Assembly: GCA_023264875.1 (NCBI GenBank)
Contig: JAHFUX010000006.1
Coordinates: 1,303-65,302, forward strand
From: Nitrosarchaeum sp.
GTDB taxonomy: Archaea; Thermoproteota; Nitrososphaeria; Nitrososphaerales; Nitrosopumilaceae
Reading direction: 5' to 3'
Length of the DNA stretch: 64,000 nucleotides
The first letter of the stretch is position 1. The number at the start of each line of letters is the position of its first letter. Positions 38,921 through 63,388 of the stretch are shown in pieces. The translations under genes were made by a program, and so were the position numbers. Under the pieces are notes generated by a model. The model saw only the letters and a program-made list of their open reading frames with translations. It was not told where the DNA came from and ran no database searches.

Positions 38921-38988
38921 AGATAGTGGTCTTTACCTAAAATAGAGTTCTCCCTGGCTTCCCGTCGAAAATAACAGACCACTACTCT
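38921..38988. repeat. Intergenic hairpin A
   Basis: Perfect 9-bp arms TAGTGGTCT (38924-38932) / AGACCACTA (38976-38984) around a 43-nt loop. Confidence 0.6.
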
Positions 38989-38999
38989 TTAACGAACTG

Positions 39000-39284
39000 T
39001 CATAGCTTATCGCTAAATTTGGATTTGAATGCATCCACTCTGCTTTGAGTTTTGTATTCTTCAGGATGTGAATCTTTTCGTGAACGCTTCTCCAACATAT
39101 GTTTGTGTTCTTCTCTGGAATGGTGTAGTCTGTCCTTTTCATGAATGAACTCTTTTTTGCAGTATTGGCAGATTACGATAGTTTTATGATGTTCATGTCT
39201 GACGTGTTTTACCAAGTCATCATGACTGTCAAATTTTGCATCACATTGTGTACAATCATTTTTCTTATTATGGAAAAATCTCAT
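39000..39284 (-). CDS. Tandem C2H2 zinc-finger protein
   Basis: CTQC..KF.....LVKH...EH and CQYC..EF......HH...EH. Confidence 0.85.
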   Translation of the reverse strand: MRFFHNKKNDCTQCDAKFDSHDDLVKHVRHEHHKTIVICQYCKKEFIHEKDRLHHSREEHKHMLEKRSRKDSHPEEYKTQSRVDAFKSKFSDKL

Positions 39285-39442
39285 TATTTTATCAACAAAA
39301 CATGTGTATTTAAATCCCACATCTATTATTCATTTTGAATTTTTAATTGATTTGATCATTGGTTTTATGTAAAATGATTTTGTATGCCCACTCAAAATTT
39401 ACATCGTTATTCAATAATATTACAATTTTTTGGAATTGAATT

Positions 39443-39529
39443 ATGATGATAGAATCTGAATCTTGTAACCATGAATATGTTGCTAATGGCACATTATCAT
39501 GTAGAAAATGTGGTAAAGTTCGTTACTGA
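39443..39529 (+). CDS. 28-aa C-x-H...CxxC micro-protein
   Basis: Manual translation MMIESESCNHEYVANGTLSCRKCGKVRY*. Confidence 0.55.
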   Translation: MMIESESCNHEYVANGTLSCRKCGKVRY

Positions 39530-39551
39530 TTCATTGAATTTTTTAAAACAA

Positions 39552-40355
39552 TCATGTTTGGACGGTTTGTCTTTTAAGACTTTTTGTAAATGCTGCAATA
39601 CTTGATTCAAGTTTGTTTTGAGGTATCTTTTCAATTAGTTTCAAAAATGCACTACCTACAATTACTGCATCAGCTCCTGCTTTGATATATTTTTTGACAT
39701 CCTCAGGAGTTGAAACCCCAAATCCTACACCAACTGGAATCTTTCCCTTGGTAATTTTTTTAACTTCTTTGATTGCATTTAGAGTATAATTTTGAATTCC
39801 TATCTTTACTCCAGTTGTACCATACACTGCAACTAAATACAAAAATCCTGAAGATAATTTTGCTATTCTTTCTATCCTTGATTTTGTTGTGTTTGGAGAT
39901 ACCAAAAATATTGTGTCTGCTGTATTTTTAGCAGATGTAAGATATTCTTTTGATTCTTCAATGGACATGTCTGGAAGAATGAATCCATCAATTCCTGCAT
40001 TTTTAGCCTCTGCAATAAATTTTGAATATCCTTTATGATACAAAATATTGGTATATGTCATTAGAATCAACGGTATGTCAGTTTCTTTTCTAATCTTTTT
40101 TACAATGTTGAAGAATTTGTTGAGTTTAATTCCATTGTCTAAAGATACAGTGCTAGCATTTTGAATTACAGGGCCATCTGCTAGAGGATCTGAAAATGGA
40201 AATCCTAATTCTATAATGTCTGCCCCACCTTTGATTAGTCCTCTGACTACAGATATTGTTGCATTTTCATTTGGATATCCGACCATGATATATGCGATTA
40301 ATGCCTTTTCTTTTTTTGCAGAGAGTTCTGCAAATTTTTCTTTAATTCTTGACAT
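39552..40355 (-). CDS. trpA: Tryptophan synthase alpha chain
   Basis: [18 protein letters not shown]. Confidence 0.98.
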
Positions 40356-41532
40356 GTTTGCTCAGATACTTTTGTACTTCTTCTACATCCTTGTCTCCTC
40401 TTCCTGAAAGTGTAACTACAATTGATTCTGATTTTTTACTCTTTTTTGCAACCTTCATTGCTTCAGCTATCGCATGAGCTGACTCTAGTGCTGGAATGAT
40501 TCCTTCAGTTCTAGTCAACATCAAAAATGCATCTATTACTTCGGCATCTGTTGCAGAGTGGTACTTTACTCGCTTAGTATCTTTTAGATAAGAGTGCTCT
40601 GGACCTACACCTGGATAATCTAATCCTGCTGAAATACTGTGCGTTTCTGTGATTTGTCCTTCATCATCTTGCAATAGATATGTCATCATTCCATGAAGCA
40701 CCCCTTTACTGCCAGCTGATAATGTTGCAGAGTGATATTTTGATTTTAATCCTTTACCTGCGGCTTCTACTCCAATAATTTCGGCATTTGTATCAACTAG
40801 TGGATAAAATGTCCCAATTGCATTTGATCCTCCACCAACACATGCAATTACAATATCTGGTGTTTTGTTTGATATTTTTTTCATCTGCACTTTAATTTCT
40901 TCTCCTATCACACTTTGAAAATCTCTTACCATTACGGGATATGGATGAGGACCTACTGCAGAGCCCAGCAAATAATATGTAGATTCTACATTTGTAATCC
41001 AGTCTCTGATTGCCTCATTGATTGCATCTTTGAGAGTTTTTGAGCCCGATTTTACTGGATGAACTTTAGCACCAAGCATATTCATTCTGTAGACATTTAG
41101 CTTTTGTCGTATGGTATCTTTGTATCCCATGTATACTTCGGATTTTATTCCCAAAACAGCACATGCCATTGCAGTAGCTACTCCGTGTTGACCTGCACCT
41201 GTTTCCGCAATGATTCTTTTTTTATTCATTTTTTTTGCAAGTAGTGCTTGACCTAATGTGTTGTTTATTTTGTGAGCTCCTCCATGCAAGAGGTCTTCTC
41301 TTTTTAGATAGATTTTAGCCCCACCGCATTTTTCTGATAAATTTTTTGCATAGTATAATGGAGTTGGCCTTCCTGCATATTGTTTGAGATAATAATCTAA
41401 TTCTTTTTTGAAATCTTTATTGTCTTTGAATTTAAGATAATTTTCTTCTAATTCTTCAATTGCAGGTACTAGTGTCTCTGGAATGTACTTGCCCCCAAAC
41501 TCTCCAAATCTACCGTCTTTAGGATACTTCAA
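40342..41532 (-). CDS. trpB: Tryptophan synthase beta chain
   Basis: [41 protein letters not shown]. Confidence 0.99.
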
Positions 41533-42308
41533 TATGCATTCACCAATTTTCTGACATGTTCTTCGATATTATCGCTTTTCATTATACTAGATCCTATTAG
41601 AAATGCATCTGTTCCGCACTTTTTTAGATATTGTATATCTCTAGGTGTCTCAATTCCACTCTCGGATAGTATTGGTCTTGTCTTTTTGTATCCTTCTAAT
41701 ACTCTTTCTGTAGTTTTCAGGTCAATCTCCAATGTGTCTAGATTTCTGTTGTTAATTCCAATTAGATCTGATTCTGTTTTTAGTGCATTTTGAAATTCTT
41801 GTTTTGTGTGAACCTCTAGTAAAATTTTCAGCCCCTTTTTGTGACCATATTTGATGAACTCATCGATATCTTTGAGAAATCTTTGATCAAATAATGATTG
41901 AATAACTAACATGTAATCTGCCCCTATTTTTTCTGCAGCATCAATCTGTACCGTATCAATCATGATATCTTTCATCAATAATGGGACATCTACTGCTTGT
42001 CTTACCTGCATAAAGTACTCTGGTGAGCCATTAAACATATGAGGCTGGGTAAGAACAGAGAGTGCTTTAGAGCCTCCTGCAATCATTTGTTTTGCGATAC
42101 TAGCTGGGTCTGATAATGTTCTAATCTTACCCAAAGACGGAGATGAAAATTTTATTTCTGTAAGTAGCGTTGCATGTTTATTTGATTTTATTATTTGTAA
42201 AAAATCCTTGTTTGATTTTTGCAATTTTATATCTATATCATACACTCCGTCATCAATTGCAGTTTGTGAATTCTTTACTAGTTTTCTTAGAATATTTTCA
42301 GTCATCAT
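41529..42308 (-). CDS. trpC: Indole-3-glycerol-phosphate synthase
   Basis: [14 protein letters not shown]...F.GS, LMKD, GINNRNL, SESGI. Confidence 0.97.
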
Positions 42309-43345
42309 ACCATCTCCTTTAATTTTGAAATGTCTCCCGTGTCTGCAACAAATCTTTCTAATAGTTTGAATGCTTTTCCATCTTTAATTGTGTTTAATGC
42401 TAACTCAACTCCTTCTTCAAAATTATTTACAATGTTTGCAACAATTAATCCTCCAGCTGCATTAAGAGCTGTTGTTTCTATCATGGCTTGATTTGCAGTA
42501 TTGTTTAACACTCCAACAAATGCCTTTATTGCATCTTCTCTTGTTTTAATTTGAATGTCTCTTAGTGTTGACTTGTGTAGTCCTACTACTTGGGGATCAA
42601 TTGAATTCATCAATACTTTGTCATTTCTTAAAATGCATACTCTGTTTGTTGCACTAGTAGAAAATTCATCCATACCATCATCAGAGCGAACTGTCATGAT
42701 GTTTTCCGCCCCGTTTCTTTTTAGAATCAGCGGTAATCTGTCTAAAAACTCAATAGCTCCAACCCCTATCATTTGATTTTTAACACCAGCTGGATTTGAT
42801 AATGGCCCTAAAAGATTAAATGCTGATCTTTTTCCTAACTGTTTTCTTGCATTTGAGACATGTCTCATTGCCGGATGAAATTTTTGTGCAAACATAAAAC
42901 AAATGTTATGTTTTTCAAGCATGTCTGCAATTCTGTCTGGCTCTGAGTTTAGATCATATCCAAAATATTCAAAAATATCTGCACTTCCAGAAACGCCTGA
43001 ACTCGAACGATTACCATGTTTTGCTACAACTCCTCCTGCGGCTGTTACCAGAAAAGAGGCAGTAGTGGACACATTAAATGTTTGAAGGTTATCCCCCCCA
43101 GTACCGCACATGTCGATTATTTTTCCTTTATTTTTAGGTACAACTTTTAGAGCAAATTCCCGCATTTTATCAAGCATTCCAAGCAGCTCATCATCGGTTT
43201 CACCTTTTTCTGTTAAGCTGGATAGAAAATCTAAGTTTTCTTTGTCATTTGTTTTACCTGATAACATCTCTGTCATGATGTAATTCATCTGATCATATGT
43301 GAGATCTGCTTTTTGTTGTAGCTTTGAAATTAAATCTGAAATCAT
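42305..43345 (-). CDS. trpD: Anthranilate phosphoribosyltransferase
   Basis: DMCGTGGD...FNVST, KHGNRSSS..SGSAD. Confidence 0.98.
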   Translation of the reverse strand: MISDLISKLQQKADLTYDQMNYIMTEMLSGKTNDKENLDFLSSLTEKGETDDELLGMLDKMREFALKVVPKNKGKIIDMCGTGGDNLQTFNVSTTASFLVTAAGGVVAKHGNRSSSGVSGSADIFEYFGYDLNSEPDRIADMLEKHNICFMFAQKFHPAMRHVSNARKQLGKRSAFNLLGPLSNPAGVKNQMIGVGAIEFLDRLPLILKRNGAENIMTVRSDDGMDEFSTSATNRVCILRNDKVLMNSIDPQVVGLHKSTLRDIQIKTREDAIKAFVGVLNNTANQAMIETTALNAAGGLIVANIVNNFEEGVELALNTIKDGKAFKLLERFVADTGDISKLKEMV

Positions 43346-43935
43346 TTTTTGTTTTTCACCTGTTTTATGAAATTTGAGAGGATCTTTTTTCCATCCTCTG
43401 TCATGATTGATTCGGGATGAAACTGTACTCCTTCTATTAGATATTTTTTGTGTCTTATTGCCATTACTTCTCCATCATCAGCTGCAGTAGCTGTCACTTC
43501 TAACACATCTGGAATTATTGTTTTATCTCCAACTAGTGAATGATATCTTGTTGCCCTGAATGGATTTTTGACATCTTTGAATAATTCTGAATTTTTATGC
43601 TCAACTGGACTAGTCTTACCATGTCTTACACAACCTGCATTTGTAACCTTGCCGCCAAATGCCTCAATGATTCCCTGGTGTCCTAAACATACTCCTAATA
43701 TTGGGGTGGTAGGTCCAATGTCTTTTATTACATCGCTACATATTCCAAAATATTTCCTGTCTGCTGGAGTTCCTGGACCTGGTGATATGATTATTGCATT
43801 ATAGTTATTTTGTTTTATCTGTTCTAGTGTTATCTTGTCATTTCTAATGACATCACAATCTACTCCTAGCTCACCCAAGTATTGTGCAATATTGTATACA
43901 AACGAATCATAGTTGTCAATAATTAGAAATTTCAT
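43342..43935 (-). CDS. trpG: Anthranilate synthase component II
   Basis: IDNYDSF, SPGPG.P, GVCLGHQ, RYHSL, QFHPES. Confidence 0.98.
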   Translation of the reverse strand: MKFLIIDNYDSFVYNIAQYLGELGVDCDVIRNDKITLEQIKQNNYNAIIISPGPGTPADRKYFGICSDVIKDIGPTTPILGVCLGHQGIIEAFGGKVTNAGCVRHGKTSPVEHKNSELFKDVKNPFRATRYHSLVGDKTIIPDVLEVTATAADDGEVMAIRHKKYLIEGVQFHPESIMTEDGKKILSNFIKQVKNKK

Positions 43936-45281
43936 TTTGTTGCCTCCCTTAGTGCTTGAAGCATCGCACCAGCTTTATGTTCAGTTTCTTTGAATTCGTT
44001 TTCTGCAACAGAGTCTGAGACAATTCCTGCACCTGATTGCACAAATCCTTTGTTGCCATTTATGAATATACTTCTAATTGCAATTGCAAAATCACAGCAT
44101 CCATTAAATGAAAAATACCCCACTGCCCCTGCATATGGCCCTCTTGCTTCGGTTTCTAATTCATCGATTATCTCCATGGCTCTGACTTTTGGAGCCCCTG
44201 ATACAGTTCCTGCTGGAAATACTGCCTTAAATGCATCAAACATGTCGTTTTCAGGCGCCAAATTACCTACAACATGGGTTACTATATGCTGCACATGACT
44301 GAATCGTTTGATCTGCATTAATTCTTCAGTGTGTACAGTTCCATACTTGCATACTCTACCTATGTCATTTCTTCCCAAATCAACTAACATGGTGTGTTCT
44401 GCTAATTCTTTTTCATCATGGAGTAATTCATCCGCTAACTGTTTGTTTTTTTCCTCATCATCTGTAATTTTTCTAGTTCCTGCAATTGGGAATGTTTCTA
44501 CTTTGTCATTTGTGATTCTTACTAGCATTTCAGGTGATGCTCCTATGATTGTTTTGCTATCTTGTTTTAGATGATACATGTATGGTGATGGATTTAGTCT
44601 TCGTAGTGTTTTGTATAGTGTTAGATTGTCTCCATGTGTATCAAACGTAAACTTTCTAGATAACACCACTTGAAATATATCTCCATCATGAATGTACTGC
44701 TTTGCCTTGTTTACAATATTTGAGAATTTTTCTTGGTTCATATTAGGTACTATTTCAGTTGTTTTAAAATCTCCAAATGAATCATCACTCATTTTAAATT
44801 GTTCAAATCTGTTTTGATCATGATAAAAATAAAATAATTTCCTATGTAGATTATCATATAATATTCCGTCATCGTATATTCCAAACTCCATTAATGGCTG
44901 TGGTGAATCATGAGTATCTGGAATATTTTCTACCAGTCTGATTGCATCATAATTTACAACACCAACTGCACCACCCAGATATCTGTAACTTTGATCTTTT
45001 GATTTTCCTAATAGTTTTTTTAGCTCTTCAAATGGGTCATTTGTTTGAATAGTTTCAGTTTTACCGTCTCTTTTGATTTCTACTTTGTCTGAATATCCTT
45101 TGAGAATTATTTTGGGGTCAAATCCCATTACCGACGTTTCAGCTAGTATTTCTGGACCTGTTAGTGATTCAAAGAGAAATGAATGTGAATAGTTTCTAGA
45201 AATTTTATTGTATATTTGAAATTGATTTTCAGATAACTCTAGTGGTATTACTTTCGGCTGAGAATTTCCAAAGGTGTCCAC
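43932..45281 (-). CDS. trpE: Anthranilate synthase component I
   Basis: GDIFQVVLSR, NPSPYM, KE.AEH.MLVDLGRND, PAGTVSGAPK; probable GTG start at 45281. Confidence 0.98.
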   Translation of the reverse strand: MDTFGNSQPKVIPLELSENQFQIYNKISRNYSHSFLFESLTGPEILAETSVMGFDPKIILKGYSDKVEIKRDGKTETIQTNDPFEELKKLLGKSKDQSYRYLGGAVGVVNYDAIRLVENIPDTHDSPQPLMEFGIYDDGILYDNLHRKLFYFYHDQNRFEQFKMSDDSFGDFKTTEIVPNMNQEKFSNIVNKAKQYIHDGDIFQVVLSRKFTFDTHGDNLTLYKTLRRLNPSPYMYHLKQDSKTIIGASPEMLVRITNDKVETFPIAGTRKITDDEEKNKQLADELLHDEKELAEHTMLVDLGRNDIGRVCKYGTVHTEELMQIKRFSHVQHIVTHVVGNLAPENDMFDAFKAVFPAGTVSGAPKVRAMEIIDELETEARGPYAGAVGYFSFNGCCDFAIAIRSIFINGNKGFVQSGAGIVSDSVAENEFKETEHKAGAMLQALREATK

Positions 45282-45346
45282 CCATAGACAAAATTTTACT
45301 CGTTTATTATTTAAATTGATTAGGTGGAAATTTAGCCACAATCTAT

Positions 45347-45372
45347 TACGGTATGGTACGGTACCTTTATAT
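45347..45372. promoter_or_regulatory. Direct repeat abutting a TATA-like box in the trpE divergent promoter region
   Basis: TACGGTA-TGG-TACGGTA (10-bp period), then CC and TTTATAT. Confidence 0.4.
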
Positions 45373-45393
45373 GATAATTGAACGTATATTTCC

Positions 45394-45588
45394 ATGACCA
45401 TGCAGGGGACAAAATCAACACTGATGCAAGATCTTTACTTCAAAAAAACATCTGAAGTAAAATCAAGTGTATCAGAAGTAGAGTGTTATATTTGCGGTAA
45501 AGGACTGCAAGATGGATATCGTATAACTGCCAAGACACTATCAAATGGAATGGCATTGTTTTGTAATGTACATTATTCCTTACAATGA
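45394..45588 (+). CDS. Small Zn-binding hypothetical protein
   Basis: CYICG...FC..H. Confidence 0.7.
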   Translation: MTMQGTKSTLMQDLYFKKTSEVKSSVSEVECYICGKGLQDGYRITAKTLSNGMALFCNVHYSLQ

Positions 45589-45675
45589 TCATTCAAATGT
45601 ATTTTTAGTTTGTAATTATTGATTCAAATCCCCTTGTAAAAGGCATTTGATATAGTAGTTTGATCAAGATCGTAT

Positions 45676-45756
45676 ATGTCTAGAAATGGCGTGCTGATAA
45701 TACTTGGTGGTATTTTGTTAATTATAATGGGATTGAAGCTAATGGGTGCTTTTTAA
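45676..45756 (+). CDS. 26-aa single-TM micro-protein
   Basis: Manual translation MSRNGVLIILGGILLIIMGLKLMGAF*. Confidence 0.5.
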   Translation: MSRNGVLIILGGILLIIMGLKLMGAF

Positions 45757-45773
45757 TTCTAAATAGTTTGGAA

Positions 45774-45959
45774 CTATCTTAGGGAATTTGAATCTTTTTT
45801 GCAAAATGGGCAAATCAGTGAATTTGTTTTGCGTCCACATGCTATGCACTGCTTTGTATTTCCAGCATGACCTGTCGTATTTGAACTTCGAATTAATTTT
45901 ATTATGATAAAAACAATGACTATCGCGACTCCAACAGTAATGATGATTCCAAGTACCAT
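45774..45959 (-). CDS. Small membrane-anchored Zn-ribbon protein
   Basis: N-terminal TM helix, then CIACG...ICPFC. Confidence 0.7.
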   Translation of the reverse strand: MVLGIIITVGVAIVIVFIIIKLIRSSNTTGHAGNTKQCIACGRKTNSLICPFCKKDSNSLR

Positions 45960-46015
45960 GTTATTTGTGTGCCTTATTACTATTCAAACCTTAGCTAATT
46001 TTTCAAAAATGACGT

Positions 46016-47173
46016 CTAACTCCAAACTTTTTCTTTAAACGTCCATTTTTTATTTAAAATAAAATTGCTAAACGCTGCAGTTGCAACTGCTAATACCAGT
46101 GCAACCGGATAGGACACACTTAGATCATCCACCAAATAATACACCATTCCAATCTGAACTACTGCACCAATAGAGCTAAATCCTGCAAACTTGCCATACT
46201 GAATGGCAGTTATTCTTGCTTTGAAATCTCTATCCTCAAATGTCCAATATTTATTCAAAAAGAAATTGCTAGTAATTGAAAACATGATTCCCAGTATGGT
46301 TGCATGAAGATACCACATGTCCAAACTTGATGTAAACAAAATAGATGTAAGATAATTAATGCCTAGCCCACATGCACCAACTGAAAAGAATCTTGCAGCC
46401 TTTGATACAAATTTGACTGATGATCTTGTTTCCTTTTGTTGCTCTTTCTTTCCATATCTGTAAAGCTTTCCTACTGCATGAATGTATTCTAAAATGATTT
46501 TTGTTCCAAGCTTACTTTTTCCATTTTCTCTATCAGAAAATGTGTATGGAATTTCCTTTATTGATACATCTTTTATCTTTACAATCATCTCCAAGAGAAT
46601 CTTGTAGCCTATTGCATCAAAGTTGATTCCTTTGATTATGTCTTTGTTAAATGCAAAAAATCCTGACATTGGATCAGATTCCTTTATGCCAAGACCTTTC
46701 TTTGCAATAATTGTTGCAATCTTGCTTATCATTTTTCGTTTTATTGACCAACCATGTATTGAACCTCCATTGAGATATCTTGATGCAACAACAATGTCTG
46801 TTTTTGATTGTTTTAATGCATCAACAAGTTTTGGTATGAGTTGTGGAGGATGAGAAAAATCGCTGTCCATTACAACAACTATTTTCCCTTTTGCCTGTTG
46901 TATTCCATTTAATATTGCAGAGCTAAGGCCTTCTCGTGTTTTTCGATTTATTACATTAATGGTATATCTTGTTTTTTCTTTTAATGACTCAAAATAATCT
47001 TCTGCGATTTTACCTGTTCCATCAGGGGAGTTGTCATCTACTACTATTGCTTCCACTATGGTGTTTTTTGGCATGTGCTCTTTGATTAAATGCAGTATTC
47101 CTTTGATATTTTCAGACTCGTTATATGTAGGAATTATTATTGATACTTCTGCATTCATTGTATTTGACAACAC
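46016..47173 (-). CDS. GT2 polyprenol-phosphate mannosyltransferase-like protein with C-terminal GtrA domain
   Basis: IIPTYNE, VDD.SPDGT, MDSDFSHPP, DPMSGFF; GtrA-like TM C-terminus. Confidence 0.92.
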   Translation of the reverse strand: MLSNTMNAEVSIIIPTYNESENIKGILHLIKEHMPKNTIVEAIVVDDNSPDGTGKIAEDYFESLKEKTRYTINVINRKTREGLSSAILNGIQQAKGKIVVVMDSDFSHPPQLIPKLVDALKQSKTDIVVASRYLNGGSIHGWSIKRKMISKIATIIAKKGLGIKESDPMSGFFAFNKDIIKGINFDAIGYKILLEMIVKIKDVSIKEIPYTFSDRENGKSKLGTKIILEYIHAVGKLYRYGKKEQQKETRSSVKFVSKAARFFSVGACGLGINYLTSILFTSSLDMWYLHATILGIMFSITSNFFLNKYWTFEDRDFKARITAIQYGKFAGFSSIGAVVQIGMVYYLVDDLSVSYPVALVLAVATAAFSNFILNKKWTFKEKVWS

Positions 47174-54842: not shown

Positions 54843-55055
54843 ATGATCATTGGTAAGATAAATAAAAATGAGAAAAAAATCAAATTTCATTTGGATATAA
54901 AGTGCACAAAATGCGGGAAAGCAGTACCTGGTGGAATGCAAGCATCTGAAAATTATTTTGGCTCTGACTCATTTAAGGCAGAAGTTGATAATTTTAAGAA
55001 AAATTATCTCTGTGGCATATGTAGAGACAAAAAAAGATTTGCAGATAAAAAATAA
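54843..55055 (+). CDS. Small CxxC/CxxC protein
   Basis: CTKCG...LCGICRD; start placed at ATG 54843. Confidence 0.7.
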   Translation: MIIGKINKNEKKIKFHLDIKCTKCGKAVPGGMQASENYFGSDSFKAEVDNFKKNYLCGICRDKKRFADKK

Positions 55056-55122
55056 CTTATTTCTAATTTATTTAATTATGATAAATAATTAAAATATCTC
55101 TCTCAGAATTGTAGTTCCTTTA

Positions 55123-55779
55123 CTACCAAACCGCATGTACTATTTCTTGTAAATTTCTTCTTGGTTTTGGGAATTTATCTTGTTTAGGATATCCTATGCA
55201 TAATACTGATGATGGAATCAAATCTGTGTTGATTATTTTCATTACTTTTTGCTCATCAAACATCCCGATCCATATGGAACTTAATCCCAAAGCCTGAGCT
55301 GCAAGCTGAGAATATGCTGCTGCTAATGTGGCATCTTGTATGGCAAATTTTTTGAGTACTTCTTCTGGAAAATTAAATTTGACTCTTGCCGGATTTTTAC
55401 AAAAAACTAGTACCACAGGTGCATATACGTATGGCTGATTGTTGCATGCCTCTACTAGACGCTGTTTTTTTTCAGGACTTTTTACATAAAATATCTCAAA
55501 ACCCTGAAAATTTCCAGCAGTAGGTGCAGTATCTGCAGCAGCTATGATCTTGTCTATCTTTACTGTCTCTACTATTTTGTCTGCAAACTTTCTAGTTGAG
55601 CGTCGTTTTGACATCACTGTAAACAAATCTGTATTGATAAATTCAGTTGGCGATGATTTTAGTATCTCACTGAGTAATTGATTTCTAACATTAACGTCTG
55701 TATTGGTCTCTTTTGGTTCATATCCTGATGGATAAATTTTTTCAGGTTCATCTTTTGAATCCATGTTATATGAAGACAA
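55123..55779 (-). CDS. Nitroreductase family protein
   Basis: KRRSTRKF, APTAGN.Q, ALGLSSIWIG.FD, LCIGYP. Confidence 0.95.
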   Translation of the reverse strand: MSSYNMDSKDEPEKIYPSGYEPKETNTDVNVRNQLLSEILKSSPTEFINTDLFTVMSKRRSTRKFADKIVETVKIDKIIAAADTAPTAGNFQGFEIFYVKSPEKKQRLVEACNNQPYVYAPVVLVFCKNPARVKFNFPEEVLKKFAIQDATLAAAYSQLAAQALGLSSIWIGMFDEQKVMKIINTDLIPSSVLCIGYPKQDKFPKPRRNLQEIVHAVW

Positions 55780-55827
55780 AATATCTAATTAAGTAATTCT
55801 CTACTGTTGATTTTGTTTTGAACTGTT

Positions 55828-55971
55828 TTATTTGGATAATTGATGTACTGTTGCACCACAGCTGTTGCATTTTTTACTCTCTATGTAATTTTCAATGGTC
55901 TGTCCATCCCAGATCAAAGCATTTGCTTTGTGACCTTTTTCACATTTTATCTTAAATAACATACTTGTCAT
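55828..55971 (-). CDS. 47-aa C-x-x-x-H/CxxC Zn micro-protein
   Basis: Manual translation MTSMLFKIKCEKGHKANALIWDGQTIENYIESKKCNSCGATVHQLSK*. Confidence 0.65.
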   Translation of the reverse strand: MTSMLFKIKCEKGHKANALIWDGQTIENYIESKKCNSCGATVHQLSK

Positions 55972-56032
55972 AGCTGTTTTTTCTGATTTTTTTCTAAACT
56001 TAAGTATATTGCTTTAGGATATGTGCCCTGTT

Positions 56033-56383
56033 TTATTGGCTAGGTCTAGCATTGCCAATATCACTTGATTCGTCTTGTTTTTTGAATACTCTGTATTCTC
56101 CAATAATAGAACTGCATTGCTGGCATGTGTATTGGCCTCTTTCTACAAGAATCAAGTTATCTGCAACTTGTTCATTTGTATTTTCTTCCAGATGTATCTT
56201 TGGTGGGTTGTTAAATTCAGTTTCACAGTTTTTACAGTAATGCTTTGACATTTTTTGTTCTTCTAGTTTGCCTATTGGTGCTAAAAATAATTTTCCAACT
56301 CCTAAATCTGCTTTTTTTGCTTGTTCTTCAGTTAGGTCAGCTATTATGTAGCCGCCTGACCCTTGTAATTTGAATTCTGCCAC
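56033..56383 (-). CDS. Conserved Zn-ribbon protein
   Basis: YCKNC...YTCQQC. Confidence 0.75.
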   Translation of the reverse strand: MAEFKLQGSGGYIIADLTEEQAKKADLGVGKLFLAPIGKLEEQKMSKHYCKNCETEFNNPPKIHLEENTNEQVADNLILVERGQYTCQQCSSIIGEYRVFKKQDESSDIGNARPSQ

Positions 56384-56434
56384 TCATTTTCTTGTCTCTT
56401 TTGGCCTTAAAATGCTATGTTTTTGAAAATTAGT

Positions 56435-56635
56435 TTATGGTTTGTGTTTTCTTATCTGATAAAGTATTGAAAAACCCAATCCAAACATAAACATACCAAT
56501 ACCAAACATGCTTAGAAAAATCATGTTGATAACACTGTCTTGAGGATTTAACAACATTGTAAATCCAATCAGAGTTAAGATAAGACCTAAAATAAGTAGC
56601 AAAATACTAGGACGTCTAAGTTCAATGATTTTCAA
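56435..56635 (-). CDS. Small two-TM membrane protein
   Basis: Two hydrophobic helices. Confidence 0.65.
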   Translation of the reverse strand: MKIIELRRPSILLLILGLILTLIGFTMLLNPQDSVINMIFLSMFGIGMFMFGLGFSILYQIRKHKP

Positions 56636-56727
56636 TGGTTTTCTAAATTTTGTGTGAACTTAAGCTTATTGAAAAACATCTATAAAATATTGATTCTACA
56701 TATTTTTAAAATAGTCTTAAAATTCAT

Positions 56728-57201
56728 TTATTTTTGTTTAATTTTTTCTGCAGCCTTTTCATAGAAAAATTCTTGCTTTTTCAACTCTTTCTCTGTTATT
56801 ATTCTGCATTTTCTCATTGGTACTAGTCGTGATATTTGCTCGTAGGTACTCATTTCTCTTACATCTGCTGCATATGCAATTTGTAGCAATGGTGATTTTT
56901 CTGTAATCATTGGCTTTACTTGCTCATATCCACCACTTTGACGCATGCCTGTACGATACAATCCGATATTTTTTCCATTCTTTGAAATTTGTGGATCCTG
57001 ATAACAACAAATGGAGTACTCTCCATTTTCTTTTTCAATAATTGTTAATCTTGTAAATTTATCACTCCAATCTTTGATCTCTCTTGCAATTTCCATTGCC
57101 TCTTTTTTATCCTCAAAGACAGTGGATACTACCAACCTGTCTTTCTCATATGCCCATGAAATACCATAAAAATTTCCATGCCATTCTATCTCCCCAGACA
57201 T
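56728..57201 (-). CDS. Hypothetical protein
   Basis: 157-aa ORF. Confidence 0.7.
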   Translation of the reverse strand: MSGEIEWHGNFYGISWAYEKDRLVVSTVFEDKKEAMEIAREIKDWSDKFTRLTIIEKENGEYSICCYQDPQISKNGKNIGLYRTGMRQSGGYEQVKPMITEKSPLLQIAYAADVREMSTYEQISRLVPMRKCRIITEKELKKQEFFYEKAAEKIKQK

Positions 57202-57290
57202 ATGTATTTCTAAGAATTTATCAAATTAACACTTTCTAATTATTGTTTATCACAATGAATAATCATACTATCTTCATCTACAAAAAAATA

Positions 57291-57521
57291 CTAACAGAAT
57301 CTGTCACATTCACATTTTCTGCTGGTAAACACATTTCTCAGAATATCTAGTCTTGAATGGGAGATTGAAGGTTTTTTGCCAACAATTTTGAATAACGTGA
57401 TCCCAGTGGCAGAACTAGTTCCCTTAAGTGCCCATGAGCCATTTTTCATCAAGTATGGTTTTGGGTTTTTCATAGTCACTTTTTTGTGTGCCTTGACATC
57501 ATATGCCTCGATTTCTGACAT
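57291..57521 (-). CDS. DUF5679-like small basic protein lacking the usual Cys ligands
   Basis: EAYDVKA.KKV.MKNP....MKNG..ALKG....TG..LFKI. Confidence 0.65.
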   Translation of the reverse strand: MSEIEAYDVKAHKKVTMKNPKPYLMKNGSWALKGTSSATGITLFKIVGKKPSISHSRLDILRNVFTSRKCECDRFC

Positions 57522-57746
57522 GAATTCTATCTCAAAATTGATATTATATAACCAAAGTAAATTTTTTCATATCAACAAGCTCAAAAATAGTTTTTCTAAA
57601 AATTAGAGCCTAAAGTGATACCGCCACTAATCAATTATTGCAATTATACGATGATTGTTGAAAATTAGTTTTATTTTTTAATTTGAATCAAACAAATGTT
57701 TGAAATTTCATAATATCTTGTTTTATATCACTAAAAGAACAATACT

Positions 57747-57806
57747 TTGACGCCTTCGATTAGTGGTCTAGGCATGCTATAAACGACCACTATTCCAAGT
57801 CGTTGA
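57747..57806 (+). ncRNA. Candidate structured small RNA (hairpin B)
   Basis: About 60-nt imperfect hairpin with core TAGTGGTC (57761-57768) / GACCACTA (57785-57792); TTTATAT at 57722-57728. Confidence 0.5.
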
Positions 57807-57808
57807 TT

Positions 57809-58141
57809 CTAAATTTCATTTAGGTGAATTTGTAGTGCTTTTTTTATTTCCTCTTTTTTTAATGCAATTTTACTGCTCCCAATTTTTAGACTGTCTGCAT
57901 CATCAATTGGTGATAATCTGTAAGCTAGAAAATCAGATAACAAATCTAAATTAAAATCATTGTTCTTTTTTAGATTTATTTTTAAATATTTTTCTTGTAT
58001 GCCTCCATCCTTTGTTAAACCACCTGATGGAAAAATTCGAATATCCTCATTGATCTTATTTTCATTTAATTTTTTTCCAAAAATTACATTGTCTATGTCA
58101 TTACCCTTATGAAAATGAAGTATGGTAATCATAAATTCCAT
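57809..58141 (-). CDS. Hypothetical protein
   Basis: 110-aa ORF. Confidence 0.55.
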   Translation of the reverse strand: MEFMITILHFHKGNDIDNVIFGKKLNENKINEDIRIFPSGGLTKDGGIQEKYLKINLKKNNDFNLDLLSDFLAYRLSPIDDADSLKIGSSKIALKKEEIKKALQIHLNEI

Positions 58142-58183
58142 AAAATTCTGTATGTTATCTAAAATAAAGAGGCTTCCTTGTGA

Positions 58184-58330
58184 CTATTTTTTCTTTAGCA
58201 GTGCATCTTCCGGTGTTTTATCTTGATTAATTTGCCAATGCCAATTGTGATGTTTTTTCCAATGTTCTTCTAATTGTTGAATTGTAGGTTCTTTTCCTAA
58301 AGGTGTTCCACAAATTTTACACTGCCTCAC
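58184..58330 (-). CDS. 48-aa C2H2 Zn-finger micro-protein
   Basis: Manual translation MRQCKICGTPLGKEPTIQQLEEHWKKHHNWHWQINQDKTPEDALLKKK*. Confidence 0.75.
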   Translation of the reverse strand: MRQCKICGTPLGKEPTIQQLEEHWKKHHNWHWQINQDKTPEDALLKKK

Positions 58331-58396
58331 AAATTTTTGTAAATTTCTGTAAAATTAAGGATTGCTTTTTCTTTGATTGATAATCCACTGTTTATC

Positions 58397-58756
58397 CTAT
58401 TTTGATTTTTGTTTTCTACTCTTGAATTCTTGTGATTTTTGTCTTTTTCTTTGTTGCTCTAGATTCATAATCAGATATGTTTTTCCTGCCTCACACAGCT
58501 TCATTTCGCCAGTAAATTCATCATGAATTGATTCTAAGGTTCCATCTGTCAAAAGCATGCCTACAATTTCCCATGCTTTGTCTTCCTGTATTTCAAATTT
58601 GTAAGAAAGTGTTGAAACTTTGGTATAGTAACCATTTTTTGAATTACGTAAAATAAAATCCCTGATTTTATCTTCTGTTGTCTGTGTTTTTGGTCGTGAT
58701 GATCTGTTGCCAAATTTCTTAAATGGTCTATTGTTTTCTGGCATATTTTTTTTCAT
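58397..58756 (-). CDS. Basic hypothetical protein, possibly wHTH
   Basis: 119-aa ORF with basic termini. Confidence 0.7.
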   Translation of the reverse strand: MKKNMPENNRPFKKFGNRSSRPKTQTTEDKIRDFILRNSKNGYYTKVSTLSYKFEIQEDKAWEIVGMLLTDGTLESIHDEFTGEMKLCEAGKTYLIMNLEQQRKRQKSQEFKSRKQKSK

Positions 58757-58828
58757 GATTTGCTGCTATTTTAGGACTTTGAACAACAAAACCTAAAGAC
58801 TTTTTGAATTCATCTGGTATTGATTTTC

Positions 58829-58957
58829 ATGAGTGAAAAGGCAAGAAGAATTGAGGAATTAAGAATGAAAACTGGTAGAAGCAAGCGTTGTCTTGATTGC
58901 AAAAAACATCGATGTATTATTGATAGTTGTCAATGCAGTTGTCATTTGAAAAGCTAA
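58829..58957 (+). CDS. 42-aa Cys-rich micro-protein with CxCxCH end
   Basis: Manual translation MSEKARRIEELRMKTGRSKRCLDCKKHRCIIDSCQCSCHLKS*. Confidence 0.65.
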   Translation: MSEKARRIEELRMKTGRSKRCLDCKKHRCIIDSCQCSCHLKS

Positions 58958-59131
58958 CTGGCATCAAAGACCTATGTGTCAGACCTGAATGACGAGCTTC
59001 ACTGCTCTAGCCTGAAAGAGGTTGTGGGTATTGTTCATTTCCCAATCTAGCCAATTAGCAACTAGCATTACACCTTTCATCAATAAAGAGTTTAAAATCT
59101 GGCTTAATTGTTGTTTTTAACCTATATACCA

Positions 59132-59254
59132 TTAGAATGATTTTGAGTCCATTTTCCTTGAATCCATCATGATGATTTTATGACACTTACAAAAGCAATT
59201 AGCATGAATCATATCGTGAGTATTTCTGTATTCACATTCTTTAGTATGTTCCAT
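59132..59254 (-). CDS. 40-aa Cys/His micro-protein with CxCxCH motif
   Basis: Manual translation MEHTKECEYRNTHDMIHANCFCKCHKIIMMDSRKMDSKSF*. Confidence 0.55.
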   Translation of the reverse strand: MEHTKECEYRNTHDMIHANCFCKCHKIIMMDSRKMDSKSF

Positions 59255-59401
59255 ATGATATTTTATTTTCAATTTTTATACACTTAAAGATTAACGAATA
59301 TTAGGTCATTAGCAATGCACACGATGAACATTACAATACGTATTGAATTGCTTTAAAAGTATTAAATTGGAATTTAAAAGAAAAAAATTTGCTTCACTTG
59401 A

Positions 59402-59452
59402 TTATTTCTTTTTTGAAGCTTTTTTTGCTGCTGCTTTTTTCTTGGCTGCCAT
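59402..59452 (-). CDS. 16-aa Lys/Ala-rich peptide
   Basis: Manual translation MAAKKKAAAKKASKKK*. Confidence 0.5.
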   Translation of the reverse strand: MAAKKKAAAKKASKKK

Positions 59453-59597
59453 AATGCAAACGATGATTTACTTGAATTTCCAACATTGATGTAAAAAAAT
59501 TAGACAAAATGGATATTGATCGGAACACAATTTTAGTCTATTTAGAATTAAAAAATAATTGAATTTCATCAAAAATATTTAGTGATTTGTCAATTCC

Positions 59598-60191
59598 TTA
59601 TTTTGTATTGATTGAATCTGGATCGTTATTTCCTGAAATATATTTATCTCCTAATTCTGCCTTCATTTTTTCATCAAATTCTTCTTGTAATCTTGTTAGA
59701 TAGATTTCTGCTTCCGTTTCGTCATCTGGAATTCCTGTATTTACATTGTAATTGAAACCCGTCGCTAGATGGTAAAACTTCTCAAAGAATTCCTTGCAAT
59801 CTATTACGTCTGCATGAGAATCAACTGCTACTACCAGACAATCACTGTCTTTTCTAAATTTTAAACAAATTTCTTCATCAATCATGGTATCTACTATTAC
59901 TGCCATGAGATACGGAATTAATGATTCATCTATTCTCTGATTATTCTTGGCATTTGTTATCCATAATTCATAACCGTCTACAAGATATTCAAACGTGCTA
60001 ACTATGATTTCTCTGATATTGCTATCTAGATGTGCTAGTTTTGATTTCCATGATCTCTCTTCTTTATTTCCAGGTTTTACATACATTACATCAAATTTTA
60101 TTTCTTCGTGAATTTGCTCATATTCCCAAATTTGCTTGTTTGTCCACATAGGTGAATACTTTTCGATTAGTGCTACAGTTAATTTATCCAA
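59598..60191 (-). CDS. Acidic hypothetical protein
   Basis: 197-aa ORF; no recognised motif. Confidence 0.65.
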   Translation of the reverse strand: MDKLTVALIEKYSPMWTNKQIWEYEQIHEEIKFDVMYVKPGNKEERSWKSKLAHLDSNIREIIVSTFEYLVDGYELWITNAKNNQRIDESLIPYLMAVIVDTMIDEEICLKFRKDSDCLVVAVDSHADVIDCKEFFEKFYHLATGFNYNVNTGIPDDETEAEIYLTRLQEEFDEKMKAELGDKYISGNNDPDSINTK

Positions 60192-60264
60192 TATTCTGAA
60201 TCAACTAGACGGTTGTTTATGCTTATCTTATAGAACCACTTAAATTTTTTTACTGTGTTTTATT

Positions 60265-60480
60265 TTAGTTTTTGATATTTGATTTTAAAAATGCTAATGT
60301 GCATTCTGCAAGTTCTTTATCTGAATGTTTTTTGATGGCGTGCTTGCAGTTAGGGCATGTACCTCTGTCTTCCTCAATAAAATCATCCCCCACTTGTTTC
60401 ATACAACATTCCATTAGTTCTGCAGTAGAATGTGATTCCATGGCTAGTTTGCATGTAGGACATTCAGTCAAATTTTTCAC
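60265..60480 (-). CDS. Tandem C2HC-type Zn-binding repeat protein
   Basis: CPTC.....HS..EL.EC and CPNC.....HS..EL.EC. Confidence 0.75.
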   Translation of the reverse strand: MKNLTECPTCKLAMESHSTAELMECCMKQVGDDFIEEDRGTCPNCKHAIKKHSDKELAECTLAFLKSNIKN

Positions 60481-60709
60481 CTATGTGAGAATCAAAGCCA
60501 TATCATGGAAAGTAACTTGTATCCAAACAAGTCCTGCTATGATTGAAATTAATGTAATGTTCAATATTTTGCATCTATTTTTCTATTTTAGTTTATCAAA
60601 ATAAAAGTTTCTCAATTTAAAAATTATTTGTATGTTCATTGATGTTGACTAAAATTTCATGGATTTGGAATTTTATGACATGTTTTAGATGAAACAAACA
60701 ACTTTTTTG

Positions 60710-60862
60710 TTATTTTTTAAACAGCTCTAATTCTTCTAGGATTTTACCCATGGAATGTTTCCATCTTCTCATTGCATCAATATCATGTGGTCTGCTATTT
60801 TCTAGTTCTTCTTTTTGTTTTAGTAATTCTTGATATCTTTTCTCATCAATTTTTTTGACCAT
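60710..60862 (-). CDS. 50-aa helical micro-protein
   Basis: Manual translation MVKKIDEKRYQELLKQKEELENSRPHDIDAMRRWKHSMGKILEELELFKK*. Confidence 0.65.
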   Translation of the reverse strand: MVKKIDEKRYQELLKQKEELENSRPHDIDAMRRWKHSMGKILEELELFKK

Positions 60863-61015
60863 ACGTTTCCTTTTTGCTCCTATATTTGAATAAATTCCCC
60901 TATGATTAGTTTTGATTCATTTTATGCCTACATTTTTTAATTTTAGGTTTTGTCTAATATTATGACTTGTTAATACATAGAAAGTTTTACTTATTACAAT
61001 AAATAATTTTTTTTA

Positions 61016-61909
61016 TTGAAATTACTACTTTTAGTTGTTCTGGTAATTGGTGTTTTGGGATACCTGTGGTATGCAAATCTATTGCCATTTGATACCACTA
61101 CCGAACTAGTCAAATCTTCTGAAAAAGTTAAGGAATTATCTAAAATTGTTACTAAAAACGAGCAAAAAGTCATCTATTACTCAATTCAAGCAATTCCAAA
61201 TCTCCCTGATGAGCAAATTCCATTAAATGCATTACATAAAGCACTTGGTGCCTGGAAATCACTTAATCCTAATTTAGATTTTGTAGAATCAGATAATCCT
61301 GGCATTGAGATTAGATGGCAAGTATATGCCTCTGAAACTCATTCTGGTCTGGCTACTTGTAATTCTGCATTATTTGGAATCTTGAATCATTGTGTGTTGG
61401 ATATTTCTGTTGGTAATGAAGATTGTAATGGTAATTATGTTCAAAATGATGAAAACATGGTTTCCAATATAATAATGCACGAGATAGGTCATGCCATTGG
61501 ATTAGGACACAGTGCTGATAAAACCCATCTAATGTATTCAGATGAATCGTCTATTGTCGATTTTGATTCACAGGGGTTTGTTGTACCTAAAAAATTTGAA
61601 GAACTCTATGTTGGACAAAAATCTCTACTTGATCAAGACAGTGAAATTCGAAGTCAACTTGAATCATTGGATAAAAAAATCTCACGTACAAAATCACAAT
61701 ATGATGAATATTATAAACAATATGAATACTATGATGGAAAAACTTTACCTCAGGACGAATTTGAAAAAGCACAGAGAATCCTAGATAAATTAAATTCTGA
61801 AGCCGACAAGATTAATTTGTTAATTGATCAACAAAATCAATTAATTAATCAAAGTAACTCTATTCTAGAAATTCTAGACTGTCATCCTAATTTTGATGTT
61901 CAAGACTAG
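61016..61909 (+). CDS. Membrane-anchored matrixin-family (metzincin) metalloprotease with C-terminal coiled coil
   Basis: HEIGHAIGLGHS plus Met-turn HLMY; N-terminal TM helix. Confidence 0.92.
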   Translation: MKLLLLVVLVIGVLGYLWYANLLPFDTTTELVKSSEKVKELSKIVTKNEQKVIYYSIQAIPNLPDEQIPLNALHKALGAWKSLNPNLDFVESDNPGIEIRWQVYASETHSGLATCNSALFGILNHCVLDISVGNEDCNGNYVQNDENMVSNIIMHEIGHAIGLGHSADKTHLMYSDESSIVDFDSQGFVVPKKFEELYVGQKSLLDQDSEIRSQLESLDKKISRTKSQYDEYYKQYEYYDGKTLPQDEFEKAQRILDKLNSEADKINLLIDQQNQLINQSNSILEILDCHPNFDVQD

Positions 61910-62379
61910 TTTCATTTTGCAGTATGTTGTAAATACAAATTAAATTATTTTTGCTTGTTATTTGATGTCGTATAATAAGATAAAACCTACAATTAATGAT
62001 ACTACTGAAATTCCCATAGAAATCATAAATTTTAGATTCACAAATTATTTTGATTTTATCTTAAATTAATAGTTTTTAAAGGAAAGCAAGCAAGTTTAAT
62101 GTCTTTTTTGCATCTGTCCCTTTGGGGGATATGTTAAAGCCATCAAACATGCAAACAGCCTTGCTTCCAATATTTTGTATATTCTAATTTTTGAAAAACT
62201 CTTAAAATAAAACGTGTCGTGTTAATTGATCAAAGTGGTTTGAAAAAATGATCCATTCATACCTAAATCTATTATTTTCCTAAAATATTCTCTAATCTAG
62301 GCATATCTATTTGGTTTGTGTTTCAAATTACACACACTGTTTCTTTTAATCTATCTTGAAATAGCATTATCGAGTCATC

Positions 62380-62445
62380 GTGTTTGACGGCATTCCTACG
62401 TTTGCCTTACAGACCATACCCTAGAATTCATTGGCCGTCAAACAC
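62380..62445. repeat. Intergenic hairpin C
   Basis: Perfect 12-bp arms GTGTTTGACGGC (62380-62391) / GCCGTCAAACAC (62434-62445) around a 42-nt loop. Confidence 0.65.
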
Positions 62446-63355: not shown

Positions 63356-63388
63356 TCTAGCCTACGTACGATTTGTCTTGTTTTTTAT

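Follow-up and report, generated by a model that had tools for sequence, protein, structure and literature searches.

Few microbes on Earth are as abundant as the ammonia-oxidising archaea, and to our knowledge almost nothing has been learned of their non-coding RNAs: we know of essentially no family specific to them in the curated libraries, beyond the universal RNAs, and of no genetic tools for the group. The stretch of DNA analysed here (64 kb in all, hereafter the window; Nitrosarchaeum-like in character, Nitrosopumilaceae) raises the question of what two intergenic hairpins with the same stem, A and B, might be, and whether they are related. An earlier note, made from the sequence, had grouped them with a variant hairpin, C, as an undescribed family of sRNAs or cis-elements or, alternatively, as a dispersed repeat. 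The reading favoured here, to which we give a probability of roughly 0.55, takes A and B to be a pair of small non-coding RNA genes of the Nitrosopumilaceae, each single-copy and inherited vertically, and each read from the + strand under its own promoter.

The shared stem and its background

An exact count gave four occurrences in the window of the 8-mer TAGTGGTC or its reverse complement (38924+, 38977−, 57761+, and 57785−), against 0.82 copies expected from dinucleotide shuffles, and confirmed that these copies form, as had been noted by eye, two inverted pairs: hairpin A (38924-38984), with a 9-bp stem and a 43-nt loop, and hairpin B (57761-57792), with an 8-bp stem and a 16-nt loop. The cores quoted at that time are also present as written, as are the opening bases in which B and C resemble each other, TTTGACGCCTTC and TTTGACGGCATTC. 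Counting perfect hairpins of 8 bp or longer gives 138 in the window, with 12 8-mers common to two hairpins; all but two of these 8-mers have at most one G or C in eight, the two richer ones being TAGTGGTC and AAATGGAG (three G/C). The real window has one stem 8-mer with at least four G/C that is common to two hairpins, and no such case arose among 400 first-order Markov simulations, by which chance under a Markov model is disfavoured. One-mismatch copies of TAGTGGTC are not enriched in the window (30 versus 25 expected).

Hairpins A and B are real, single-copy, conserved structured elements of ammonia-oxidising archaea (Table 1). As imperfect intergenic palindromes of 60-70 nt with a common core, they do resemble the bacterial REP/BIME sequences and MITEs, which likewise measure tens of nucleotides, and the earlier note had offered a REP/MITE-like dispersed mobile element as its alternative. 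This is highly improbable: exactly one A and one B lie in the 64 kb, each keeps its syntenic position from genus to genus, and the covariance models give one match each per related locus. No further paired copies were found in 1.15 Mb of 82 related loci, nor further copies in ~1.4 Mb of related DNA, and there was no other low-GC type among the matches listed, which covered at least 120 metagenome loci. Neither flanking direct repeats or target-site duplications at A and B nor a transposase or RAYT gene in the neighbouring open reading frames was detected—in agreement, as is the lack of an ACA tail at A and B, with the earlier note—and the compensatory evolution of the stems is typical of a vertically inherited structure. 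The single-copy, syntenic nature of A and B thus corrects the mobile-repeat reading.

Site C does not belong with them. Its 12-bp stem (hairpin z = −3.5) is missed by both covariance models, R1 and R2, and its likeness to A and B is confined to 7-8-mers at chance level; C, though built similarly, is a conserved hairpin in its own right and not a variant member. Rfam gave no match for C, a SNORD49 hit of 15 bits near it not rising above noise. What stands of the proposed family is that its elements are undescribed (the whole window has no match in Rfam 15, the surroundings of A, B, and C giving nothing better than noise, E ≥ 0.2), conserved, and structured, with covariation in both stems; what falls is its extent, since C is excluded and the family can comprise at most two paralogous loci.

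Table 1. Coordinates of features at sites A, B, and C in the window.
Feature	Positions	Strand	Observation
A TATA-like box TTTTTTATTTT	38880..38890	+	Fixed spacing, conserved in all A-type loci; centre ~26 nt upstream of conserved leader
A conserved leader TGAGCACATCTAGA	38910..38923	+	tGAgaACaTCtAG conserved in 28 loci
A hairpin	38924..38984	+	Covariation; covariance-model match 38908-39004, 105.9 bits
A arms TAGTGGTC and GACCACTA	38924-38931, 38977-38984		45-nt loop between the 8-nt arms carries AAATAGAGTTCYCCC
A conserved trailer CTCTTTAACG	38985..38994	+	Consensus YTCTTTRACG, from alignment of A loci
B conserved upstream block AAAATTAGTTTTATTTTTTAATTTGAATCAAACAAATGTTTGAA	57661..57705	.	In all B-type loci, whatever the left gene
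B TATA-like box TTTTATAT	57721..57728	+	yTTTTATAy at fixed distance, ~28 loci including divergent L307; 40 nt upstream of upper stem
B hairpin	57749..57806	+	Covariance-model match 95.6 bits; compensatory changes
B lower stem	57749-57756 with 57797-57804		Internal loop CGAT/TTCC
B upper stem	57761-57768 with 57785-57792
B apical loop TAGGCATGCTATAAAC	57769-57784		16 nt, almost invariant; most conserved part of B
B T7 run	57839..57846	+	Candidate archaeal terminator for + strand RNA; inside Lys-Lys codons
C hairpin unit	62340..62455	+	Conserved in L190, L248, L277, L279, L280, L302, L305, L307, L308, L311; T-rich tail
C TATA-like box TTTCTTTTAAT	62340-62350
C leader GAGTCAT	62372-62378
C stem	62380-62391 with 62434-62445		12 bp

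Conservation and covariation of hairpins A and B

The earlier note had suggested a check for covariation across relatives, and this was positive for both hairpins. Hairpin A is conserved, syntenic, and single-copy, and lies upstream of pyrG in 28 loci. Compensatory (double) changes were observed in six of its eight stem pairs, with 95.5% of cells paired, and its covariation score was 0.36, compared with 0.11 in shuffles, none of 500 of which reached the observed value. TAGTGGTC is the most widespread form of the A stem, across several genera, with TGGCGGCC or TAGTGGCC in other genera. In two loci of the Nitrosomaritimum lineage (L012 and L023), the loop of A is inverted relative to the flanks, which keep their orientation. 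Small inversions of hairpin loops are also known from chloroplast non-coding DNA; unlike in those, the inversion in A is seen here between genera only, with no recombinase involved. With regard to a possible invertible DNA switch (inverton), the segment measures only 41-47 bp, and there is no recombinase gene among the adjacent genes.

Hairpin B is conserved, syntenic, and single-copy in ~30 loci. Double changes were found in six of its pairs, with 0 of 500 shuffles scoring as high, and the upper stem is altered in the divergent locus L307 (TAGCAGTC/GACTGCTA), its near-invariance elsewhere being partly an ascertainment effect of a metagenome search pattern that required exact arms; only six distinct B loci were obtained free of that bias (L302, L305, L307/L310, L311/L312, and L314). 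G·U or U·G pairs occur at five positions of B: 7-62, 12-57, 6-63, 8-61 (in L302), and 23-46 (in Nitrosopumilus sp. K4). On the − strand these would be A·C mismatches, which favours the + strand for B; model R1 (B) scored 95.6 bits in the window on + and 27.7 bits on −. In A, two wobble cells are U·G in the + orientation and four are C·A that would be U·G on the − strand; split both ways in this manner, the wobble evidence does not fix the strand of A.

Putative own promoters, predicted transcript ends, and a possible role as DNA

As proposed, + strand transcription would diverge from pyrG (A) and from the small left-hand gene (B), and converge with the right-hand gene. The two units would be built alike: a TATA-type promoter would be followed ~26 nt downstream by a start that lies on a conserved leader of 10-12 nt, and then by a hairpin whose pairing is kept by selection. 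The archaeal TATA box is centred near −26/−27, and in every A, B, and C locus a TATA-like box stands at a fixed distance, followed by a variable spacer, with conservation resuming at the predicted start (near A38912/G38913 in A and at about G57749-G57752 in B). A second TATA-like stretch in the AAAATTAGTTTTATTTTTTAATTTGAATCAAACAAATGTTTGAA block is probably the − strand promoter of the left-hand gene of B. The predicted A RNA, of ~90-105 nt, would have a loop of 41-47 nt closed by a covarying 8-bp stem, flanked by a conserved single-stranded leader and trailer; the predicted B RNA would be a hairpin of ~60 nt with a 3′ tail (~75-100 nt in total), whose 18-20 bp stack almost continuously into one helix that retains conserved pyrimidine mismatches and is capped by the nearly invariant apical loop of 16 nt. 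The working surfaces would be the invariant loop and the internal loop in B and the leader and trailer in A, with the stems only presenting them, and their ligand may be a conserved protein or an RNA target in trans; no target or partner was identified.

With respect to the 3′ ends, the T7 run past B lies within the C-terminal Lys-Lys codons of the convergent 110-aa open reading frame; outside Nitrosarchaeum, a T7 run stands ~9-13 nt past the lower stem, overlapping the ‘LLKK’ C-terminus of a 48/49-aa zinc-finger gene. No consistent T-run terminator was found across the A loci.

The hairpins begin 3-16 nt past − strand stop codons, and could be read as 3′-UTR or terminator stem-loops that stabilise or end the mRNAs of those genes, that is, a C2H2 zinc-finger gene at A and a 110-aa or 48-aa gene at B. 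Consistent with this, four A loci have U·G on the − strand only, and a few low-depth contigs from RNA libraries cover B (57681-57846, 57712-57927, and 57671-57835), including ones that extend into the 3′ end of the 110-aa gene; the contigs begin upstream of the predicted start, and they could represent DNA carry-over or − strand read-through. Nevertheless, such a function is improbable. The wobble pairs of B are mismatched on the − strand, which also has no conserved U-run, and a near-invariant 16-nt loop is unexpected for a generic terminator. Furthermore, the right-hand gene changes while the hairpin remains with the promoter region on its left: pyrG adjoins A constantly, whereas its right-hand neighbour is a zinc-finger gene, trpA, or another gene, and where the 110-aa gene is inserted between B and the 48-aa zinc-finger gene, B stays with its TATA-like box. 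The hairpin thus travels with the promoter and not with the right-hand gene. In marine metatranscriptomes, the zinc-finger mRNA contig ends 8 nt short of the hairpin, which has zero depth in four runs, indicating that the hairpin lies outside the 3′ UTR of that mRNA. The groundwater metatranscriptomes from the same study as the source gave no signal for the hairpins, and no strand-resolved transcripts of A or B were found in public RNA data.

The absence of clear RNA coverage agrees with another reading, in which A and B act as DNA: a dimeric factor would bind an inverted-repeat operator, or a cruciform, between divergent promoters and so regulate pyrG or the left-hand gene, or insulate adjacent transcription units. 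The hairpins lie at a fixed ~33 nt from the TATA-like box, with A upstream of pyrG in 28 loci; small C2H2 zinc-finger genes are nearby; and the A loop is tolerated both ways round, as if the arms alone mattered, a feature that an RNA function specific to the loop would not readily explain. However, the spacing of the arms is very unlike (16 nt versus 41-47 nt), the spacer of B is its most conserved part, the left-hand gene of B differs between genera, and the variable lower stem of B covaries with G·T-type pairs, which would be meaningless for a double-stranded operator. We therefore regard a role as DNA as unlikely, and return to small RNA genes as the preferred reading.

Known RNA classes and the possible relationship between A and B

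Among known systems, the intergenic sRNAs catalogued in Haloferax, Sulfolobus, Methanosarcina, and Pyrococcus, which have TATA promoters of their own, are like A and B in being short units with a TATA-like box ~26 nt before a conserved start, a stable hairpin, a T-rich 3′ region, and family-wide conservation. They differ in that A and B are known from sequence and match no curated RNA family, and in that the loop conservation of B is more usual for RNAs in protein complexes. The H/ACA and C/D guide sRNAs, which form L7Ae/K-turn RNPs, resemble B in size (60-100 nt) and in an internal loop between stems, and A in its GA...GA flanks on the − strand; A and B have neither an ACA tail nor RUGAUGA/CUGA box pairs. 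For the C/D class, UGAUGA is absent from both strands of A and B, CUGA occurs only in the leader and loop of A at non-canonical spacing, and there is no Rfam C/D match above noise. For the H/ACA class, the internal loop of B is 4×4 and partly paired, its upper part has no tandem G·A pairs, and its 3′ flanks (AUUC, UGUU, AUCA, and so on) are not ACA. The − strand sequence of A, AAGA-R-stem...stem-N-CUA-GA-UG, fits the K-turn consensus with invariant bases at the level of sequence; a K-turn placed on B in the same register would disrupt the lower stem that covaries there. The resemblance to a tRNA D-loop seen earlier did not amount to a meaningful tRNA link: ARAGORN called zero genes across the window and, over 35 loci, nothing at A or B, Rfam tRNA likewise gave none, and a real tRNA-Gln D-arm, GUAGUGUGG, is only loosely like UAGUGGUC.

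One genome (L314) bears on whether A and B are relatives: its A stem is AGATGGTC/GACCATCT and its B keeps TAGTGGTC/GACCACTA; with A altered and B unchanged, the stems are not in concerted evolution. The identical stems in the present genome most likely reflect an old duplication, and not a shared stem-reading factor, with A and B being two possibly paralogous genes. That they are instead unrelated conserved elements with 8-bp stems identical by coincidence, sharing neither ancestry nor function, is doubtful, and the observations divide. BLAST gives nothing similar beyond a 9-mer, model R1 (B) fails to find A in the window, the A stem has diverged in L314 and in other genera while B in L314 has not, and the upstream TGTTTGRA motif common to both is not conserved in A outside Nitrosarchaeum. 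On the other hand, no simulated window (0/400) gave a G+C-containing stem 8-mer common to two hairpins; TAGTGGTC, the most widespread A stem over several genera, is hence probably ancestral; the flanks agree as well, in having a G 2-3 nt ahead of the stem and YTC behind it; the promoter-leader-hairpin layout is common to both; and the second-best match of the A model in the window is B, on the same strand (20.3 bits, E = 0.02).

A further proposal, which we hold tentatively and at less than even odds, is that an unrecognised, clade-wide RNP or regulatory system of the ammonia-oxidising Nitrosopumilaceae has B, and perhaps also A and C, as its RNA subunit or as a specific ligand, with A and B being ancient paralogues of one such RNA. 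Three compact candidates are now at hand—A (upstream of pyrG), B (with its near-invariant loop), and C—each with covariance support for its structure and with a predicted promoter and start; if transcribed, they would offer a way into new RNA-protein complexes or regulatory circuits. For archaeal intergenic hairpins, they also supply a clear natural case of compensatory change in the stem and, in A, of inversion of the loop. Finally, the 16-nt loop of B, UAGGCAUGCUAUAAAC, is almost invariant over marine, freshwater, and soil lineages, and contains the self-complementary GCAUGC, a motif that could allow loop-to-loop pairing of two molecules.

The shared stem of hairpins A and B

Hairpins A and B are read here, with a probability of roughly 0.55, as two small plus-strand ncRNA genes that may be paralogous; close by lies a third unit (C), built alike but unrelated. 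An earlier note had reported one 8-mer core occurring four times as two inverted pairs, and an exact count confirmed this: TAGTGGTC or its complement occurs exactly 4 times in the window, against 0.82 expected, and is arranged as the two hairpins. The window contains 138 perfect hairpins with stems of 8 bp or more, and sharing of a stem 8-mer between them is, taken alone, not rare: 12 stem 8-mers, nearly all of them AT-only words, are common to hairpins. For a shared stem 8-mer with at least four G/C, the actual window gave one case and 400 Markov simulations gave none, so that chance similarity under a Markov model, which the note had raised, does not account for the identical stems of A and B. 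The A/B observation is real and exceeds chance.

The window is AT-rich (G+C ~32%). CTP synthase (pyrG), at 97% and 94% identity to Nitrosarchaeum MAGs, places the host within the Nitrosopumilaceae as Nitrosarchaeum-like; the lineage occurs chiefly in groundwater and freshwater metagenomes.

Features of the window and conserved elements of the A-type and C units
Feature	Position	Strand	Detail
pyrG	37135-38784	-	
Predicted start, A	~38912	+	from TATA spacing
Hairpin A	38924-38984		stem 8-9 bp
A stem form			TAGTGGTC/GACCACTA
A stem form			TGGCGGCC/GACCGCCA
A stem form			TGGTGGTC/GGCCACCA
A stem form			TAGTGGCC/GGCCACTA
A stem form			AGATGGTC/GACCATCT
A leader, conserved			tGAgaACaTCtAG; A-type alignment
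A loop motif, conserved			TGAAATAGAGTTCCCC; A-type alignment
A trailer, conserved			YTCTTTRACG; A-type alignment
Two-finger C2H2 protein gene	39000-39320		106 aa; upstream of pyrG
trpA/trpB and more ORFs	39552-45401		match trp operon annotated in related locus L314
45-nt block upstream of B	57661-57705		AAAATTAGTTTTATTTTTTAATTTGAATCAAACAAATGTTTGAA; conserved across genera
Predicted start, B	~57749-57752	+	from TATA spacing
Hairpin B	57761-57792		8-bp upper stem within longer imperfect helix 57749-57806
C unit	62340-62455		TATA-like TTTCTTTTAAT; conserved GAGTCAT leader; T-rich tail
Predicted start, C	~62372	+	from TATA spacing
C stem			GTTTGACGGC/GCCGTCAAAC; almost invariant, 10-12 bp
C loop			40 nt, conserved
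TTG ORF overlapping C	62384-62701		105 aa; probably spurious

Conservation and covariation of A and B

A pyrG-anchored search yielded 80 loci, and a covariance model (R2) was built from the A-type sequences. R2 identified one copy each in 28 Nitrosopumilaceae loci, always upstream of pyrG and on the opposite strand to it, at a distance from the pyrG start ranging from ~90 nt to ~1.4 kb. The pyrG side is constant, whereas the right-hand neighbor varies and may encode a C2H2 zinc-finger protein, be trpA, or be some other gene; certain relatives lack the zinc-finger gene, and trpA then directly adjoins the hairpin. The stem letters differ by lineage with pairing preserved (five forms), changes on both sides being found in 6 of 8 pairs and 95.5% of the cells being paired; the covariation score was reached by 0 of 500 shuffles. 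In two of the comparison loci (L012:2465-2557 and L023:9807-9899), the loop motif lies in reverse orientation between unchanged flanks and appears inverted, since it reads GGGGAAC instead of the GTTCCCC of the other loci; judging from these sequences, a small inversion of the hairpin loop seems to have become fixed in the Nitrosomaritimum lineage. A T-rich motif with AACG also occurs three times around A (window 38840-38997). Two copies, TTTTTTTTAACGAG and TTTTTTAACGTG, lie within the pyrG promoter region and have counterparts in Nitrosopumilus loci; the third is the trailer, CTCTTTAACGAA.

When metagenomes were scanned for the paired core, at least 120 loci matched; among the matches listed, 24 low-GC contigs carried B and 11 carried A, and the remainder were high-GC or unrelated. 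Because the scan demanded exact arms, further B loci were gathered without this bias, through the neighboring proteins, and B features were compared over ~25 distinct sequences. A covariance model of B-type hairpins (R1) found exactly one copy each in L302, L305, L307/L310, L311/L312 (Nitrosopumilus sp. K4, where B lies at ~753.6 kb of CP067007.1), and L314. The lower stem covaries (pair 7-62 as G-C, A-U, or G.U; 9-60 from C-G to U-A; 10-59 from G-C to A-U), and the upper stem in L307 bears two compensatory changes (TAGCAGTC/GACTGCTA). Overall, both sides change in 6 pairs, which was matched by 0 of 500 shuffles; covariation, the lack of which the earlier note had listed as a refutation, was found for both hairpins. 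Wobble pairs occur at five positions, all valid solely on the plus strand of the window, and the 16-nt loop UAGGCAUGCUAUAAAC differs at no more than two positions across the ~25 sequences. A window search for targets of this loop gave one 13/16 match, inside a 119-aa gene, which 13 of 100 shuffles equaled and which is therefore not significant. B remains with its putative left-hand promoter block despite insertion of a 110-aa gene on the right or a different gene on the left. The 45-nt block upstream of B is kept whichever minus-strand gene follows (76-aa, 45-aa CxxC, or 155-aa protein); it may act as a promoter or upstream element or belong to a transcript.

As to whether A and B form one family, coincidence of the stems would agree with the absence of extended similarity in BLAST comparisons of regions A, B, and C with each other and with the window, and with the behavior of L314, the sole genome with both loci captured, where B retains UAGUGGUC and A reads AGAUGGUC/GACCAUCU. 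Against it stand the identity of the stems beyond chance, the matching flanks (G 2-3 nt before the stem, YTC after), the same unit layout, and the ranking of B as the second-best R2 match (E = 0.02) within the window, its strand being that of A; coincidence is considered rather unlikely. Concerted evolution of the stems was rejected because they differ in L314, the one genome tested. Since the stems do not co-evolve there, their sequence would not be read by a common factor. The identical stems are most simply explained by old paralogy, TAGTGGTC being the most widespread A form. That A and B are DNA-level inverted-repeat operators is judged improbable.

Predicted promoter layout and transcripts

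Every A, B, and C locus contains a TATA-like box at a fixed distance, followed by a variable spacer, with conservation resuming ~26 nt past the box center. Archaeal TATA boxes are centered near -26/-27, and the resumed conservation thus coincides with the expected start site. A T7 run lies 3′ of B, ~9-13 nt past the lower stem outside Nitrosarchaeum and 33 nt past the helix within it, and in both cases overlaps codons for Lys in the convergent gene; A has no consistent T-run. TGTTTGRA was rejected as a common promoter motif, being neither enriched in the window (19 versus 15 expected) nor conserved in A outside Nitrosarchaeum.

Groundwater metatranscriptomes from the same study gave no coverage over B. 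In marine metatranscriptomes, the neighboring zinc-finger mRNA was covered until 8 nt before hairpin B, with zero depth over the hairpin itself. This argues against a 3′-UTR role for B, and that the hairpins belong to the 3′-UTRs of minus-strand mRNAs is judged improbable. Zero depth in standard libraries is also expected for a small RNA of ~75 nt. The few low-depth contigs from RNA libraries that span B lack strand information and extend 5′ of the predicted start, and contigs from soil and sediment "RNA" runs were mostly long and DNA-like. At a related locus (L226:5758-5762), contigs in three independent marine metatranscriptomes begin at exactly the same place, right after the Illumina adapter, marking a sharp RNA 5′ end inside an annotated 45-aa CxxC ORF, the start of which may therefore be mis-called.

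Unit C and relation to known elements

The earlier note had included C as a variant of the A/B family. C is a genuine 12-bp hairpin that folds strongly, and its 7-8-mers in common with A and B are at chance level; by sequence comparison it is a separate, third conserved unit, with the layout of A and B and an unrelated sequence. It was found in Nitrosarchaeum and Nitrosopumilus sp. K4 as well as at more distant loci.

None of the three elements matched Rfam 15 at gathering or permissive thresholds, and ARAGORN called no tRNA for them; a tRNA or tRNA fragment was rejected on these results. For the tRNA complementarity check suggested in the note, all the sequence analyzed offered a single tRNA. 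C/D RNA (boxes absent) and H/ACA RNA (ACA tail absent) were rejected for B and are improbable for A. On the minus strand, A could form a K-turn, its GA dinucleotides being invariant in the sequences; a K-turn for B was rejected, the register in A being incompatible with the covarying lower stem of B. A scan of viral contigs for the paired core gave 98 matches, all unrelated (chance or virus-specific families). Of the two proposals in the note, a REP/MITE-like dispersed element does not fit, each type being single-copy and syntenic in the loci compared, with covarying stems and without duplication or transposase; an undescribed sRNA or cis-element family holds insofar as A and B are conserved, covarying, and absent from Rfam, and fails as a repeat family. 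No description of A, B, or C was found in the libraries and literature searched, where the elements are thus undescribed.

The region around B and C (window 56000-64000; G+C 0.30) is dense in small conserved ORFs, several of which encode C2H2, CxxC zinc-finger, or zinc-ribbon proteins (e.g., 58184-58330, 60265-60480, and 63756-63887); it looks like a core region rather than a mobile island, since gene order is kept across Nitrosopumilaceae. Separately, a contig of a Nitrosopumilus MAG carries at its end (L006, reverse-strand 3-130) ~8 tandem copies of a 15-nt unit, TACTGGTGTATTAAT.
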